64,000 bases of DNA, from contig OY760937.1 in assembly GCA_963664225.1 (NCBI GenBank), positions 5,312,001-5,376,000 of the forward strand. Reading direction: 5' to 3'. This document shows, piece after piece, positions 36,794 through 42,721 of the stretch. The notes below the pieces were generated by a model that saw only the letters and a list, made by a program, of their open reading frames with translations, was not told the DNA's origin and did no database searches. The position numbers were made by a program, and so were the translations under genes. Every line of letters starts with the position of its first letter. Positions within the stretch are counted from its first letter, which is position 1. The DNA comes from Verrucomicrobiia bacterium (lineage in GTDB: Bacteria > Verrucomicrobiota > Verrucomicrobiia > Limisphaerales > UBA1319).

Positions 36794-37777
36794 CTAGCGG
36801 ACGGGCGTGATTTTGCCTGATTTGGCCGATTCGACCGCCGCTTCGAGCACGCGCACGGAATCGAATCCAGCCCAGCCGTCGGCGCGAGGGGCCTGGCGTG
36901 TCTTTGTGGATTCAATGAAGGCGCGCAGTTCTGCAAGCAGCGGTTCTTCGGGTGGGCATTCGATTTGTTGGACGGGGCCTTCGACACCCTGGAAGTCCGT
37001 GCCTTTTTGCACGAAGTGATTGGGGTAGGCCTTGATCTTGTATTGGGCGACGTTGAAATCGCAGACGGCGCTGAGCTGGGATCCGATGACGGTAACCTCG
37101 CGGAATTTGCCAGGCAACCAGTAATTGGTTTCGACAGTGGCCCAGGCAACGCCTTTCGGGGTGTCGTATTCCATGGAAATGGCGGAGGCGTCCTCCATGC
37201 CACGCGCCAGAAAATCGTGCATGACGGCGCTGACGCGGGCGGGGGTGCCGCCCATGAAATAGTTGAACAGGTCGATGAAATGGATGGCATCGGCGAAGGC
37301 AATGCCGCTGTCGTTGCGGGGGCGTTTGAATCCGCTGAAATTGCCGCGCATCATGTTGATGCGGCCGAATTGACCGGATTGGATGTTGTCGCGCAGCCAT
37401 TGGGATGCCGGGTCGAAGCGGAAGATGTGGCCCACCTGAAGGATGCGGGCTTTTTCGGCGGCGAGTTCGGCCAGTTTGCGGGCTTCGGAAGAGATCAGGG
37501 TGATGGGTTTTTCCACAAACACATCCTTGCCGGCGAGCATCAAATCACGGACCAGCTCAAAGTGGGTTTGCGCTGGGGTGACGACGACGGCGGCATCCAC
37601 AACGCCAAAGAAATCCCTGGGGTCGGTGGACATGTGGTCGGCGGCGATGCCAAGCTTGCGCGCGGCATCGAGTTGCTGAGAGCGCACATCGACCACGTAG
37701 AGATCCACGGGCAAATTGTGCAATACACGCAGGTGGTTGGCCCCCCAGCGTCCTAAACCAAATAACAAAATCTTCAT
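36794..37777 (-). CDS. Gfo/Idh/MocA oxidoreductase (nucleotide-sugar dehydrogenase-like)
   Basis: GLGRWG, VFVEKPI, VGHIFRF, DAIHFID. Confidence 0.9.
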   Translation of the reverse strand: MKILLFGLGRWGANHLRVLHNLPVDLYVVDVRSQQLDAARKLGIAADHMSTDPRDFFGVVDAAVVVTPAQTHFELVRDLMLAGKDVFVEKPITLISSEARKLAELAAEKARILQVGHIFRFDPASQWLRDNIQSGQFGRINMMRGNFSGFKRPRNDSGIAFADAIHFIDLFNYFMGGTPARVSAVMHDFLARGMEDASAISMEYDTPKGVAWATVETNYWLPGKFREVTVIGSQLSAVCDFNVAQYKIKAYPNHFVQKGTDFQGVEGPVQQIECPPEEPLLAELRAFIESTKTRQAPRADGWAGFDSVRVLEAAVESAKSGKITPVR

Positions 37778-37935
37778 CACTAGGTGGCGTAAGCATTGTA
37801 AAACAGGCCACCACCGGCAAGCTTAAATTGAGGGTGTTTACCGTCATGAAATTCCGCATTTGGATTATTGACAAAGGATTTTCAACCTGCCAATGGCCGG
37901 AGGGCGCAAACAAGGGCAGGGGAGTGGAGATGGTT

Positions 37936-38102
37936 TTAACCCGAAATCCGAAATAGGAACGGCCCATCTGACGCAATCATTTGGCCATCCATGGTTTGAA
38001 ACCGGCTGCGGAGTATTGATTTAATACACCCTCGCCGATTGCAAATCATGGCTGACTCAAAGCATTGCACCATCTGGACCCTTCTTATTTCGGATTTCGG
38101 GT
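37936..38102. mobile_element. About 170-bp long imperfect palindrome (MITE/REP-like); right end interrupted by the group II intron and completed at 40078-40081
   Basis: AACCCGAAATCCGAAATA (37938-37955) is the exact reverse complement of TATTTCGGATTTCGGGT|T (38086-38102 plus 40078); ~80-nt arms pair at about 62/81 positions (hand alignment) around loop 38018-38022. Confidence 0.75.
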
Positions 38103-40077
38103 GTGCGCCAGTGAAATTGGTAGCCTCGTGGGTGAAAGTCCCGCCGGTCGAATTAGACGGTTCACGACCGAAATGCAGCGTCCGGGACGAGGCCGTGAGG
38201 CCGAACCACAAGCGGGACGCTGAAAGAACTGTCGGGTCGTAACGAAAGTAAACCTCATCAAATGAGCTCCGAAACCGAAATAACCGGTAAGCCGAGCCGC
38301 TACCCGAACGGCGAAGGCAGAAACGCGGCGTCATCAAATCGTCAAATGGGCGCTGTTGATTCCGGCGGAGTCAGCGAGGGCGACACGACAGGAAGGGAAA
38401 CCAAGGTAAGCTGGGAGATCTCTGGAGGCGGGGCGATAAAGCCTCAACCGCCGGTGCAAGGAGGAACACCCTCCGAGGCCGCACGGGCAGCCAGAGAAGT
38501 CGGAGTCTTCCATAGTAGCGAAGAAGCTGGGGCGACCAAAACCCCGGCGGAGCCAAGGGAAGGCACTTGGATCGAAGCGAATCAAAACAGCGAGGGACAG
38601 GGAGATGGCCTTGAGGGAGTGGAAACACTTTTTCAACGGATAACAACCCCGATAAAAGTTCAAAAGCTGCAGCGAGCGCTATATTGCAAAGCCAAGGCTG
38701 AGCCGAAGTATCGGTTTTACAGCCTCTACGGAGAACTGCTGCGGAAGGACGTGCTGGAAACGGCAATGGCCTCCGTGGCGCACAACAATGGCGCGGCTGG
38801 GATCGACGGGCAGACATGCGACGTCTATCTTGCCAGCGACGAAGCCTGGGACCAATGGCGGAACCAACTGCTGGAGGAGTTACGCACGAAGAAGTATCGG
38901 CCAAGCCCGGTGAAGCGTGTGTATATACCAAAAGGAGACGGGAAGCTGCGACCCCTGGGCATCCCGACAGTGAAAGACCGGGTGGTGCAGACAGCGGTGG
39001 TGATTGTATTGCTGCCGATTCTGGAAGCCGATAGTCATCCGAACAGTTACGCCTATCATCCCAAACGCAATGCCCACCAAGCAATGGAGGCGATCAAGAA
39101 GGCTACGCTGACAGGACGCGTCGAAGTTATAGACGCGGACTTAAGCGGGTATTTTGACAGCATTCCCCACAGGCGTTTGTTGCGCATAGTGGCCAAGCGG
39201 GTCAGCGATGGAACAATTCTCAAGCTGATCGCAGGATGGCTGCGCGCGCCCGTGAATGAACCGCAAAGCGACACAGGGAAAGGCGGGACAAAGGGGGGGC
39301 AAGGTCAGAATCGACGGGGGACTCCGCAAGGCGGGGTTGTATCGCCGATTTTAGCCAATGCATACCTCAACCAGTTGGATTGGGAAGTCAACGAACGCTG
39401 CGAACTCAAACCCGTGATGGTGAGATACGCGGATGATTTCGTGATACTCGGACAGCCGGGGCAGGGACGGGAACTGATGGAACGACTGGAACGATGGCTG
39501 AAGCAACGCGAGTTAGTGCTCAACGAGAAGAAGACCCGCTTGGTGGACCTCCGCCAGGATGGCATCAAATTCTTGGGATTCGCGCTAACAATGCGACAGG
39601 GGAAGGGGAAATGGAAATATCCGCATGTGGAACCCCATCCCAAGAGCCAGAAGAAGTTTCGAGACGGGATTCGGGAGAAACTCAACCGAAGCACGCTATG
39701 GCGTGATATCGGAGAGGTGATTCCCGAGCTCAACAAGAAACTCAAAGGTTGGAAGGGTTACTTTCACTACGGGAACAGCACCAAGGTGATGGGCCAGATG
39801 AACGAATACGTCAGCAGCAAGTTACAACGATGGTTGTGGCGCAAACACGGATGTAGTCGGGCGCAATGGTCCACATACCCCAAGGAGGATCTCTATGAGC
39901 GTTATGGTTTATACCAAATGCCGGAATATGCGGCATGGAAACGATGACGTCGAAGCGATGCAACGTATGATCCCCGGAGAGCCGGATGCGGGAAAACCGC
40001 CTGTCCGGTTCGATGAGGGGCGAAATGCGACGGTCATTGGCCACGGCCATTCAATCCGTCCATTTCGCCTACTCTAC
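38103..40077 (+). mobile_element. Group II intron (IIB-type ribozyme, En-minus), apparently full length
   Basis: 5' GTGCG; EBS1 ACCCGAA loop (38302-38308); DV GAGCCGGATGCGGGAAAACCGCCTGTCCGGTTC (39979-40011); DVI with bulged A40071; 3' end CTCTAC. Confidence 0.92.
38619..39947 (+). CDS. ltrA: Group II intron reverse transcriptase/maturase without an HNH endonuclease domain
   Basis: AAGIDG, RPLGIPTVKDRVVQ, DADLSGYFD, GTPQGGVVSP, YADD, FLGF, X-domain GWKGYF. Start uncertain (GTG 38619 after GAGGGA; the frame is open from 38262 across ribozyme sequence). Confidence 0.93.
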   Translation: METLFQRITTPIKVQKLQRALYCKAKAEPKYRFYSLYGELLRKDVLETAMASVAHNNGAAGIDGQTCDVYLASDEAWDQWRNQLLEELRTKKYRPSPVKRVYIPKGDGKLRPLGIPTVKDRVVQTAVVIVLLPILEADSHPNSYAYHPKRNAHQAMEAIKKATLTGRVEVIDADLSGYFDSIPHRRLLRIVAKRVSDGTILKLIAGWLRAPVNEPQSDTGKGGTKGGQGQNRRGTPQGGVVSPILANAYLNQLDWEVNERCELKPVMVRYADDFVILGQPGQGRELMERLERWLKQRELVLNEKKTRLVDLRQDGIKFLGFALTMRQGKGKWKYPHVEPHPKSQKKFRDGIREKLNRSTLWRDIGEVIPELNKKLKGWKGYFHYGNSTKVMGQMNEYVSSKLQRWLWRKHGCSRAQWSTYPKEDLYERYGLYQMPEYAAWKR

Positions 40078-40147
40078 TTAATCGTTGAGTTCGCCGGATT
40101 ACGCTTGAACAGGCCATTGCGTTGAGCAAGTATCCAAGCCCGGTAAG

Positions 40148-42721
40148 ATGCCATCCAGCACCACCCAATATACTGTCCCGGAAGCGGACCTGCTTAAGCA
40201 ATTGGGCAGCTCCGGAAATGGCCTGTCTTCGGAAACGGCGCTTGAGCGTTTGCGAGAGACGGGATCAAATACCGTGGCCGCTGGGGAACGCCGGGGAGTC
40301 TTGCGTGATCTGTTAGTGCGGTGTCGCAATCCCCTGGTCATTCAATTGCTCATCATCGCCACTGTTTCCTACCTGATGTCCGATTTGCGCTCCACAGTGG
40401 TTGTGGGGGGCATGGTGTTTCTGAGTGTATTTCTTTCTTATATTCAGGAAACCCGCTCATCGCGCGCCGTTGAGAAACTGCAAAAACTCGTCAAGACCAC
40501 AGTGACAGTTTTGCGCGATGGGAAGGAAGTCGATGTGCCGTTGGAGGATATTGTGCCCGGCGATGTGGTGGTTCTGGCTGCGGGGAGCCTTATTCCGGCG
40601 GATTTGCGGATTTTGTCGGCCAAGGACTTCTTCGTCACACAATCGGCGCTGACGGGTGAATCGATGCCGGTGGAGAAAAACGCGGAGATTAACCCGGTTG
40701 CCGGACGTGGAGCATTCGACCTGAGCAACGCCTGTTTCATGGGATGCAACGTGTTAAGCGGGACAGCACATGGTGTGGTGCTGGCCACCGGAGCACGGAC
40801 GTATTTTGGAGCTCTGGCTCAGAAACTTTTGGCTCGCAGAGCGCCGACGAGCTTTGATAGCGGGGTTCGGGATTTCACCTGGTTGATGATCCGTTTCATG
40901 GTGGTGATGGTGTCGGCGACGTTTTTGATCGTGGGGCTGACAAAAGGCAATTGGTCGGAGGCGCTGCTCTTCGCGTTGTCGGTTGCAGTGGGGCTCACGC
41001 CGGAGATGCTGCCGATGATCATCACGGTTTGCCTCTCCAAGGGGGCGATGCAGATGGCGCGCAAGAAGGTGATCGTGAAGCACCTGCACGCCATCCAGAA
41101 TTTTGGCGCGATGGATGTGCTCTGCACGGACAAGACGGGCACGCTGACGCAGGATCATGTGGTGCTGGAGCGCTATGTGGATGTGGCCAACCGGACGAGC
41201 GAGGATGTGCTGCGCTACGCCTACATGAACAGCTTTTACCAGACCGGTTTGCGCAATTTACTGGATAGGGCCATTCTGGCTCACAAGGAGTTGGATGTGG
41301 AGCGTAATTGTCGCAAAGTGGATGAAATTCCATTCGACTTCAAGCGGCGACGCATGTCGGTGGTGATCGATTATGAGGATCGCCATGTGCTGATCTGCAA
41401 AGGGGCGGTGGAGGAGGTGGCGGGAGTCTGTGAGAATTACCAGGTGGACGACGACATCAACCCGCTGATTCAGTTGATTCGGGACGATTTGATGGATGAA
41501 TACCGAAGCCTCAGTGCGGAGGGGTATCGTGTTCTGGCCATTGCCTACCGGGAATTTGATCGGGGCAAACAGAGTTTCAATGTGGCGGACGAGGCGGGTT
41601 TAACGCTGCTGGGATACATCGCTTTTTTCGATCCGCCCAAGGATACCTCAGCCAGGGCGATCGAGGGGCTTACGCGCTCGGGAGTAAAGGTGAAGATTTT
41701 AACCGGTGACAATGAATTAGTGACGCGCAAGGTTTGCCACGATGTGGCCATGCCGATCAGCAAAATTGTGACCGGACCGCAGTTGGCGGCCATGGGTGAG
41801 GAACAATTTGCGAAAGAGGTGGACGAAGCCAATGTGCTGGCCCGTTTGTCGCCGGATCAGAAGGAGAAAGTCATTCAGACGCTCCGAGCCCGGGGGCATG
41901 TGGTCGGGTTCATGGGGGATGGGATCAACGACGTGCTGGCGATGAAGGCGGCGGATGTGGCGATTTCCGTGGATACGGCTGTGGATGTGGCGAAGGAATC
42001 CGCCGACATTATTCTGCTGGAAAAGAGCCTGCTGGTGCTGGAGGAAGGGATTATTGAGGGGCGGAAGGTGTTTGGCAATATTCTCAAGTATATCAAGATG
42101 GGCGCGAGTTCGAACTTCGGGAATATGTTCAGCGTGGTGGGAGGGGCTTATTTTCTGCCGTTTTTGCCGATGGCCCCAATCCAGGTGTTGGTGAACAACC
42201 TGCTTTACGACGTGTCCCAGGTCGGCATTCCGCTGGATAATGTGGATGAGGAATATCTCGCCAAGCCGAGACAGTGGAATATCAAGAGCATCCGCAACTT
42301 CATGGTATTCATCGGGCCGATCAGCTCCATATTCGATTACGCGACCTTCTTTCTGATGCTGTATTTTTTCAAATGCGCGGCGTTTTCGCAGGCCGGTCCG
42401 GTGGACAAGGCCTATTACGAAAGCCTGTTTCACACGGGGTGGTTTGTGGAATCGCTGCTGACGCAGACGCTGATTGTGCATATCATCCGCACGCAGCGGA
42501 TACCATTCATTCAGAGCCGGCCGAGCAAGCCGATGCTTTTTGGCACGCTTTTGGTGATGGCCATTGGGGTGTGGCTGCCTTTTTCACCGCTGGCGCGGTT
42601 TTTGGGTTTGACGCCTCTGCCCGGAGTGTTTTTTGTCTGGCTTGCGGGTTTTCTCGTCTCTTATTGTGTGATTACACATTGTGTGAAGATGTGGTTTACA
42701 CGTCGGTTTGGGATGGATTGA
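40148..42721 (+). CDS. mgtA: Magnesium-translocating P-type ATPase
   Basis: TGES, VGLTPEMLPMI, DKTGTLT, GDGIND, YIKMGASSNFGN, FHTGWFVES. Confidence 0.95.
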   Translation: MPSSTTQYTVPEADLLKQLGSSGNGLSSETALERLRETGSNTVAAGERRGVLRDLLVRCRNPLVIQLLIIATVSYLMSDLRSTVVVGGMVFLSVFLSYIQETRSSRAVEKLQKLVKTTVTVLRDGKEVDVPLEDIVPGDVVVLAAGSLIPADLRILSAKDFFVTQSALTGESMPVEKNAEINPVAGRGAFDLSNACFMGCNVLSGTAHGVVLATGARTYFGALAQKLLARRAPTSFDSGVRDFTWLMIRFMVVMVSATFLIVGLTKGNWSEALLFALSVAVGLTPEMLPMIITVCLSKGAMQMARKKVIVKHLHAIQNFGAMDVLCTDKTGTLTQDHVVLERYVDVANRTSEDVLRYAYMNSFYQTGLRNLLDRAILAHKELDVERNCRKVDEIPFDFKRRRMSVVIDYEDRHVLICKGAVEEVAGVCENYQVDDDINPLIQLIRDDLMDEYRSLSAEGYRVLAIAYREFDRGKQSFNVADEAGLTLLGYIAFFDPPKDTSARAIEGLTRSGVKVKILTGDNELVTRKVCHDVAMPISKIVTGPQLAAMGEEQFAKEVDEANVLARLSPDQKEKVIQTLRARGHVVGFMGDGINDVLAMKAADVAISVDTAVDVAKESADIILLEKSLLVLEEGIIEGRKVFGNILKYIKMGASSNFGNMFSVVGGAYFLPFLPMAPIQVLVNNLLYDVSQVGIPLDNVDEEYLAKPRQWNIKSIRNFMVFIGPISSIFDYATFFLMLYFFKCAAFSQAGPVDKAYYESLFHTGWFVESLLTQTLIVHIIRTQRIPFIQSRPSKPMLFGTLLVMAIGVWLPFSPLARFLGLTPLPGVFFVWLAGFLVSYCVITHCVKMWFTRRFGMD

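Follow-up and report, generated by a model that had tools for sequence, protein, structure and literature searches.

Why does a group II intron lie exactly at the end of a palindromic element, and does it harm this element? The question is raised by a stretch of 64,000 nucleotides from a Verrucomicrobiia bacterium (assembly GCA_963664225.1, contig OY760937.1, positions 5,312,001 to 5,376,000 of the forward strand), here called the window, in which a complete group II intron at 38103-40077 (+) directly follows a 164-bp miniature inverted-repeat transposable element (MITE). A first-pass annotation of the window had proposed that two exon-binding sites of the intron (EBS1 and EBS2) are directed against the conserved end of a repeat family. 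We found that every copy of the intron in the genome lies at one 13-nt motif, mostly at the tips of this MITE or of an insertion sequence (IS) of the IS1380 family. Retrohoming at replication forks, guided by the pairing of EBS1 and EBS2 with the intron-binding sites IBS1 and IBS2 of the exon and retargeted to the IS1380/MITE tip, is in our judgement likely to be the correct explanation, and the best of those considered.

The intron, its copies and its target

The assembly, a single contig of 5.78 Mb, was scanned for intron copies and for the 13-nt motif. The genome contains 19 intron copies that do not differ from one another at any of their 1975 nt (100% identity). Each copy directly follows TCGGA[T/G]TTCGGGT, and the first three bases after it are T, either T or A, and A. 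The motif occurs at 51 sites, of which 19 are occupied, and these counts bear out the proposed specialization on a conserved repeat end. Thirteen copies are located at MITE tips, four at IS tips and two at lone motifs without a partner arm within 230 nt. Left and right MITE ends are both used (both MITE orientations), and the sequence beyond the intron is unique at each locus. Judged by their sequences, the 19 identical copies argue for recent mobility of the intron. The contig carrying the intron was recovered from two isolate-like sequencing runs without any difference, and in these runs the word depth over the intron was ∼14-18 times that of the flanks, a rough figure that should not be read as a copy number.

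The intron starts with GTGCG and ends with CTAC (GUGCG...CUAC in the RNA). The Rfam models for domains D1-D4 of type 6 (RF02005) and for D5/D6 (RF00029) matched positions 38135-38380 with 54.9 bits (gathering score 49) and 39977-40077 with 49.3 bits (gathering score 40), respectively. According to the RF00029 alignment, domain V covers 39979-40011 (+) with an AGC triad at 39980-39982, and the A at 40071 (+) in domain VI is the probable branch point. The intron coordinates and the triad given by the first-pass annotation were all correct when the letters were read again. An open reading frame (ORF) at 38619-39947 (+) encodes a reverse transcriptase (RT)/maturase with Pfam matches to RVT_1 (38925-39584; 1.8e-34) and GIIM (39651-39869; 1e-13) and a match of 356 bits to the NCBIfam equivalog TIGR04416 (cut-off 300). 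Its start codon is uncertain: the GTG at 38619 is possible, and the frame is open back to an ATG at 38262. Since only ∼25 residues follow domain X, the protein has no DNA-binding (D) or endonuclease (En) domain. With ribozyme domains that begin with the GUGYG 5' end, an RT and maturase (X) ORF and a covarying EBS1-IBS1 pair, the element has the features of a mobile bacterial group II intron.

EBS1 (ACCCGAA, 38302-38308, +) occupies the loop of a hairpin at 38296-38312 that is closed by GCCG/CGGC, and forms seven of seven Watson-Crick pairs with IBS1, the last seven exon nucleotides TTCGGGT (38096-38102, +). EBS2 (CCGAAAUAA, 38275-38283, +) lies in an internal loop of domain I and pairs with IBS2 (TTATTTCGG, exon positions -18 to -10; 38085-38093, +). 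This helix between CCGAAATAA (38275-38283) and TTATTTCGG (38085-38093) comprises 9 bp, and an equal helix was found in 1 of 1000 exon shuffles. EBS1 and EBS2 together cover the last 18 nt of the 5' exon. Both pairings had been recognized in the first-pass annotation. It had also named TCCGAAA (38268-38274) as an alternative EBS2, which is indeed complementary to the target but is the weaker candidate; it overlaps the conserved stem GAGCUCC and a GAAA that is constant in the relatives, and it was rejected as the main EBS2. The match arises because the target is a tandem repeat (ATTTCGG ATTTCGGG). The first base of the 3' exon, T40078, is the candidate IBS3.

To describe the elements next to the introns, the introns were removed in silico and elements were defined by pairs of end motifs. 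Fourteen elements of 164 bp carry both exact end motifs (ACCCGAAATCCGA...TCGGATTTCGGGT), and a fifteenth, diverged copy has two mismatches in its left end. In the window, this element extends from 37939 to 38102, the target being its right tip. Its left arm (37939-37983) and its right arm (38058-38102), with which the 5' exon ends, are each 45 nt long and 80% complementary to each other. Copies of a TTA target-site duplication are located at 37936-37938 on the left and, beyond the intron, at 40078-40080 on the right. Matching TTA/TAA sequences were found on both sides in 18 of the 19 elements after intron removal, and the intron separates the terminal repeat from the right-hand copy of the duplication. 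The size of 164 bp, the 15 copies, the lack of an ORF, a tip shared with an IS and the same TWA duplication identify the element as a MITE.

Five further elements of 1534 bp each encode a 473-aa transposase of the IS1380 family (NF033539, 227 bits, cut-off 180; Pfam DDE_Tnp_1_4), and with this DDE transposase, terminal inverted repeats and TWA duplications they belong to that family. The repeat family, described as non-coding in the first-pass annotation, therefore includes a transposase-encoding IS besides the MITE. The tip ACCCGAA[A/C]TCCGA is common to MITE and IS, with 13 of 14 tip bases alike, as is the flanking direct repeat, TTA or TAA (18 of 19 elements). The MITE is presumably moved by the transposase of the IS, and the IS1380-family element is probably its parent.

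Two readings of the duplication fit equally well, one with 5 bp (TTWAA) and an element starting from CCC, here TTTAA at 37935-37939, and one with 3 bp and an element starting from ACCC. Under either reading, the intron lies outside the terminal repeat and the duplications flank the transposon alone. It had been stated that removal of the intron restores a perfect inverted repeat. The repeat itself is real, a 17-mer of it occurring twice in the window versus 0.23 times expected, but all 17 nt of its perfect part belong to the 5' exon and are uninterrupted; intron removal extends the repeat by a single pair, T40078 with A37938.

One MITE is split by another IS (L029; G000:C1:264200-266900). Its end motifs are 2016 nt apart instead of 151, an ORF for an IS1634-family transposase (NF033559, 328.6 bits) lies between them, and the left flank lacks the usual TWA.

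Related introns and the role of the hairpin

The 5' junctions of twelve members of the intron's clade were recovered from genome and metagenome contigs. EBS1 and IBS1 pair at seven of seven positions in nine of them and at six of seven in the other three, with nine different EBS1 sequences among them; EBS1 of the window intron differs by one base (U to C) from the commonest EBS1 of the clade (ACCUGAA). The first-pass annotation had held that close homologs in unrelated sequences would refute its proposal. Such homologs do exist, but their EBS1 is altered to match each exon, and this change of EBS1 with the exon is retargeting and not a lack of targeting. The homologous EBS2 loop pairs with exon positions -16 to -8 in L233 (8 bp, 24 of 1000 shuffles), L234 (7 bp, 75 of 1000), L232 (5 bp, 73 of 1000) and L227 (5 bp, 111 of 1000).

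Several relatives are located at the ends of repeats. In genome G044, each of the 16 recovered 5' junctions falls where a palindromic repeat of 57-89 nt ends on its 3' side; the loop of this repeat is found in both orientations. Its end motif occurs 170 times, versus no occurrence of a control pattern, and 17 of the 18 parsed 3' exons begin with T; the palindrome is the core of a longer repeat and not a transposon tip. L227 adjoins the end of an element 198 nt long, with an anchored partner of 18 nt at -198 (0 of 300 shuffles), L230 the end of a ∼160-nt element with 43-nt arms that are 74% complementary, and for L158 a perfect 8-nt partner lies at -56 (5 of 2000 shuffles). Seven relatives have ...GTGG-TTnAACTGCnnTTTTCAGGT in common in their 5' exons. 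No anchored partner was found for L058, L232, L233, L234 and L235 in 69-486 nt of flanking sequence, or for an ORF-less relative in genome G034 in 300 nt; the 42 nt of 5' exon present on the contig of L056 placed it outside this assessment. In the genomes of single-copy relatives, the pattern GYNGTTTTCAGGW was matched four to five times each in G041, G043 and G045 and not at all in G042, compared with zero to three times for the control, giving no sign of a high-copy target in these four genomes, the contigs of which are short and may be mis-binned.

These repeat ends, and the long hairpin that the first-pass annotation had stressed at the insertion site, raise the question of whether base-pairing is only part of the specificity, with the ribonucleoprotein additionally recognizing the 3' base of a hairpin extruded on single-stranded DNA, in the manner of group IIC introns at terminators and attC sites. 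For several members of the clade, the intron begins at exactly the nucleotide where an inverted-repeat arm ends on its 3' side, namely at all 16 G044 junctions, in L227, L158 and L230, and in the window with an anchored match of 28 nt (0 of 300 shuffles). Folded as single-stranded DNA, the MITE of the window reaches -42.7 kcal/mol, and the site lies at the base of this fold. However, a local partner arm is lacking at 6 of the 19 sites of this genome (four IS tips, the partner of which is 1.5 kb away, and the two lone motifs), and sites of this kind are used at similar rates: favorable IS tips are filled in 3 of 5 cases and favorable MITE tips in 13 of 19, where favorable refers to the strand orientation defined below. 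The hairpin thus appears to be unneeded and its presence incidental. Moreover, IBS1 and IBS2 lie inside the 3' arm and would be hidden by the folded hairpin, an EBS1 of 7-8 nt and an EBS2 are present, unlike in IIC introns, and there is no anchored repeat in the short flanks available for L058, L232, L233 and the G034 relative. We therefore consider a structure-assisted targeting quite unlikely.

A broader form of this idea would regard the whole En-less clade as dedicated hyperparasites of inverted-repeat transposons and palindromic repeats, with EBS1 retuned for each terminus and a structural cue at the outer 3' boundary of the arm (the hairpin base on the lagging-strand template) acting beside base-pairing. 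This appears unlikely to us; if true, a IIC-like habit would have evolved independently in an intron with a full EBS1 and EBS2.

Some relatives show features of their own. At L210 (G044:C9), the palindrome is followed by the first 12 nt of the intron and then by the usual 3' flank minus its first three bases, which looks like the footprint of an intron loss by deletion. The ORF-less G034 relative (L031, 1308-2002, -) is ∼695 nt long and 71-84% identical to parts of the ribozyme; its own EBS1, GCCGUAA, matches the exon TTACGGC, and it lies ∼45 nt downstream of a large palindromic element. On the metagenome contigs L226 and L228, the 3' end of an intron is followed directly by an intron 5' end, which reflects either copies arranged head to tail or a repeat that was assembled as a circle, and both were left out of the site analysis. 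At L032 (∼2221-2451, G005:C61), a masked run of N stands where a truncated relative abuts another RT-like ORF, and the 5' junction is not readable.

Strand choice and mode of spread

The same motif is present on both strands of the genome, and the two orientations relative to replication were compared. Replichores were set from the position of dnaA (2.99 Mb) and the cumulative ORF-strand skew, which changes direction near 3.1 and 1.1 Mb. This is in rough agreement with the GC skew, the cumulative curve of which has no simple V shape. A site whose sense strand is the leading-strand sequence was taken to lie on the lagging-strand template and is called favorable. Eighteen of the 26 favorable sites are occupied versus 1 of the 25 opposite sites (Fisher p = 1e-6). 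At least 18 of the 19 copies are thus located on the presumed lagging-strand template, and in no element are both ends occupied.

The retrohoming explanation would work as follows. Bound to its RT, the excised intron RNA would recognize the final 13-18 nt of the terminal inverted repeat by base-pairing, to which EBS1 would contribute 7 nt and EBS2 up to 9 nt, and the RNA would reverse splice into single-stranded DNA just past the repeat, ahead of the T of the transposon's TWA duplication. Copying would then be primed by the nascent lagging strand at the replication fork. Each new insertion of the transposon would create two fresh sites, one per strand, of which the one on the lagging-strand template would be used, and the transposon would stay intact. 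Reverse splicing into the lagging-strand template and priming by the lagging strand are steps that we infer; for RmInt2, an En-less intron, the lagging-strand bias and homing to IS inverted repeats were shown experimentally (PMC4615759).

IS1380-family elements such as ISEcp1 mobilize adjacent DNA. The intron, which is found next to a transposon in nearly all cases, might accordingly be mere cargo, MITE and intron moving as one unit with no retrohoming at all. Such a passive spread is extremely improbable and was rejected on the evidence of the target-site duplications, which flank the transposon alone in 18 of 19 elements and leave the intron outside. It would also have to account for introns at either MITE end, at two element types and at two lone motifs, for the different sequence beyond the intron at each locus, and for a strand bias that tracks the direction of replication.

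The first-pass annotation had further suggested that the intron may disable its host element. There is precedent for such a brake on transposition, as insertion of RmInt1 into ISRm2011-2 blocks the spread of this IS (PMC5894124) and RmInt2 splits the repeat of ISRm17 ∼16 nt from its tip. In the present case, however, the terminal repeats and the transposase ORF are intact because the intron is inserted outside the terminal repeat, beyond its last base. The suggestion is not supported by these findings, and we regard a role of the intron as a brake as highly improbable.

Several observations weigh against targeted retrohoming as outlined above. The origin is not exactly mapped, as a cluster of DnaA boxes was sought and none was found, and the copy at 2,986,270, ∼4-5 kb from dnaA, would be on the other strand if the origin lay beyond dnaA. 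Of the EBS2 pairing, 4-5 bp remain where an intron copy of this genome lies at an IS tip or a lone motif, and the pairing is absent or non-significant in 6 of the 11 relatives tested: L058 forms a 6-bp helix with wobble pairs (260 of 1000 shuffles), and no comparable helix was found in L056, L059, L158, L230 and L235. A search for EBS3 did not locate it, and A was present at +1 in only one 5'-complete relative. The end of the transposon is ambiguous (3- or 5-bp duplication), placing the intron either 0 or 1 nt beyond the tip. Eight favorable sites are empty, among them all three that have G at -18. A search for sequencing runs gave no transcriptome of the organism, two metatranscriptomes containing 0.04-0.06 of the words, and splicing and current activity would be deduced only from the identity of the 19 copies.

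The empty favorable sites, including the three with G at -18, make recognition beyond the pairings likely. These three are MITE tips (cgtatt...; genome sites 174328, 623743 and 2984654), and their occupancy of 0 of 3 compares with 18 of 23 at the other favorable sites (hypergeometric probability about 0.02), which hints that the protein reads the distal 5' exon. The copy at 2,986,270 (G000:C1), the single exception to the strand bias, also differs from all others in occupying the IS end that lies 3' of the transposase gene, with which it could be co-transcribed.

The intron-less state of the locus was sought among sequencing runs. In four DNA runs, for which contigs only were used, no contig crossed the whole locus. 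In a metagenome contig of low depth (X5 record 24, depth 3.3), a variant MITE arm runs straight into base 40078; with 17 letters on one side, under the 31-letter standard, the junction weakly suggests that a relative has an empty site.

Each MITE represents a clean natural experiment in which the same target is offered on both strands within 164 bp and only the one on the presumed lagging-strand template is taken. This strand choice supports, without any cloning, the replication-fork model for endonuclease-less introns. The intron would use a DNA transposon as an undamaged generator of sites, both elements being able to keep spreading, which would be a gentler form of the RmInt2 strategy. The relatives on other repeat elements suggest an association at the level of lineages between a retroelement clade and inverted-repeat elements. 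In practical terms, such introns fragment short-read assemblies at each of their copies, and they mark transposon tips precisely.

In the window, MITE and intron lie in a divergent intergenic region between ORFs at 36794-37780 (-) and 40148-42721 (+). The latter encodes 857 aa, resembles a P-type cation ATPase by eye, and starts 70 nt downstream of the intron in the same orientation; if the promoter of this ATPase-like gene lies upstream of the MITE, its expression would depend on splicing.

Class and comparison with known systems

A quick maximum-likelihood tree of 27 rows was calculated for the RT. Full support unites the window intron with four relatives (L056-L059, 76-78% identical) in a group of their own, which stands beside a 17-row group of g3 introns, the joining node being weakly placed. 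The genome also harbors a second family of RT-encoding group II introns with four copies (∼5,162,225, 2,330,538, 1,677,346 and 5,605,174; L020-L027, L030), which are 74-79% identical over short stretches of RT and domain V and whose RT falls on a long separate branch of the quick tree.

The best named match of the RT is Ni.ha.I1 (39.5% identity over 96% of the query), which is assigned to group g3, the former class F, in Table S2 of PMC3552965. The window intron resembles g3 introns in its RT-X protein of ∼440 aa, which lacks D and En domains and has a short C-terminal extension after domain X (PMC3552965). It differs from them in that it groups apart together with its four relatives and in the C-terminal extension.

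With group IIC, the window intron shares the lack of an En domain and a position that in IIC introns is often at the 3' side of a DNA hairpin (PMC4424553). It differs from IIC in its 7-nt EBS1 and 9-nt EBS2, its AGC triad, a domain I of the Rfam D1D4-6 type and a hairpin that is dispensable at 6 of 19 sites. Group IIC was ruled out on the basis of the two EBS lengths and these six sites without a local hairpin.

The closest parallel in habit is found in Sinorhizobium meliloti GR4. On the GR4 megaplasmids, one group of seven intron copies shares a 5' exon consisting of the outer ∼16 nt of an IS, followed by the IS body in either orientation. The five copies of a second group have ∼550 nt in common on the upstream side of the intron and 500 nt on the downstream side. 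Judging by copy number and context, we take the former to be RmInt2 and the latter to be RmInt1. The RT of the window intron is 31-35% identical to both, and class D (IIB3) appears in the quick tree as a separate long-branched pair far away from the window group; class D was ruled out on these two grounds.

RmInt1 in ISRm2011-2 and other introns in IS genes likewise are retroelements that live in or on DNA transposons; they interrupt a transposase gene, whereas the window intron interrupts nothing. None of the papers searched describes a group II intron that homes to IS1380 elements or to the tips of MITEs or of repetitive extragenic palindromic (REP) sequences. For Pseudomonas putida, two of nine intron copies are listed as REP-associated in a table of PMC1525189.

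All RmInt2 copies lie within the inverted repeats of ISRm17, an arrangement by which the targets are doubled and one on the lagging strand is guaranteed (PMC4615759, PMC5894124). RmInt2 resembles the window intron in that it lacks En, has multiple identical copies which all occupy the terminal inverted repeats of a single IS, can insert at either end, is biased toward the lagging strand, and has a relaxed EBS2 with a 2-nt linker. Its EBS3/IBS3 pair is of the U-A type, which in the window intron would presumably correspond to A-T. The window intron shows most of this strategy, with 17 of 19 copies at IS or MITE tips, the use of either end and the strand bias, but not the insertion within the repeat: seven of seven GR4 copies are located ∼16 nt inside the IS tip, point inward and split the repeat, while the window intron lies beyond the tip and points outward. 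Furthermore, RmInt2 belongs to class D and the RT of the window intron to another clade, most targets here are MITEs (13 of 19), and relatives have the same habit on other elements. Homing to IS ends is therefore a strategy already known from RmInt2 in ISRm17 in rhizobia, and the window intron is a variant of it outside the tip. What is new here, as judged from the sequences compared, is that EBS1 covaries with the exon in 12 relatives and that several relatives are also located at the outer end of inverted-repeat elements.

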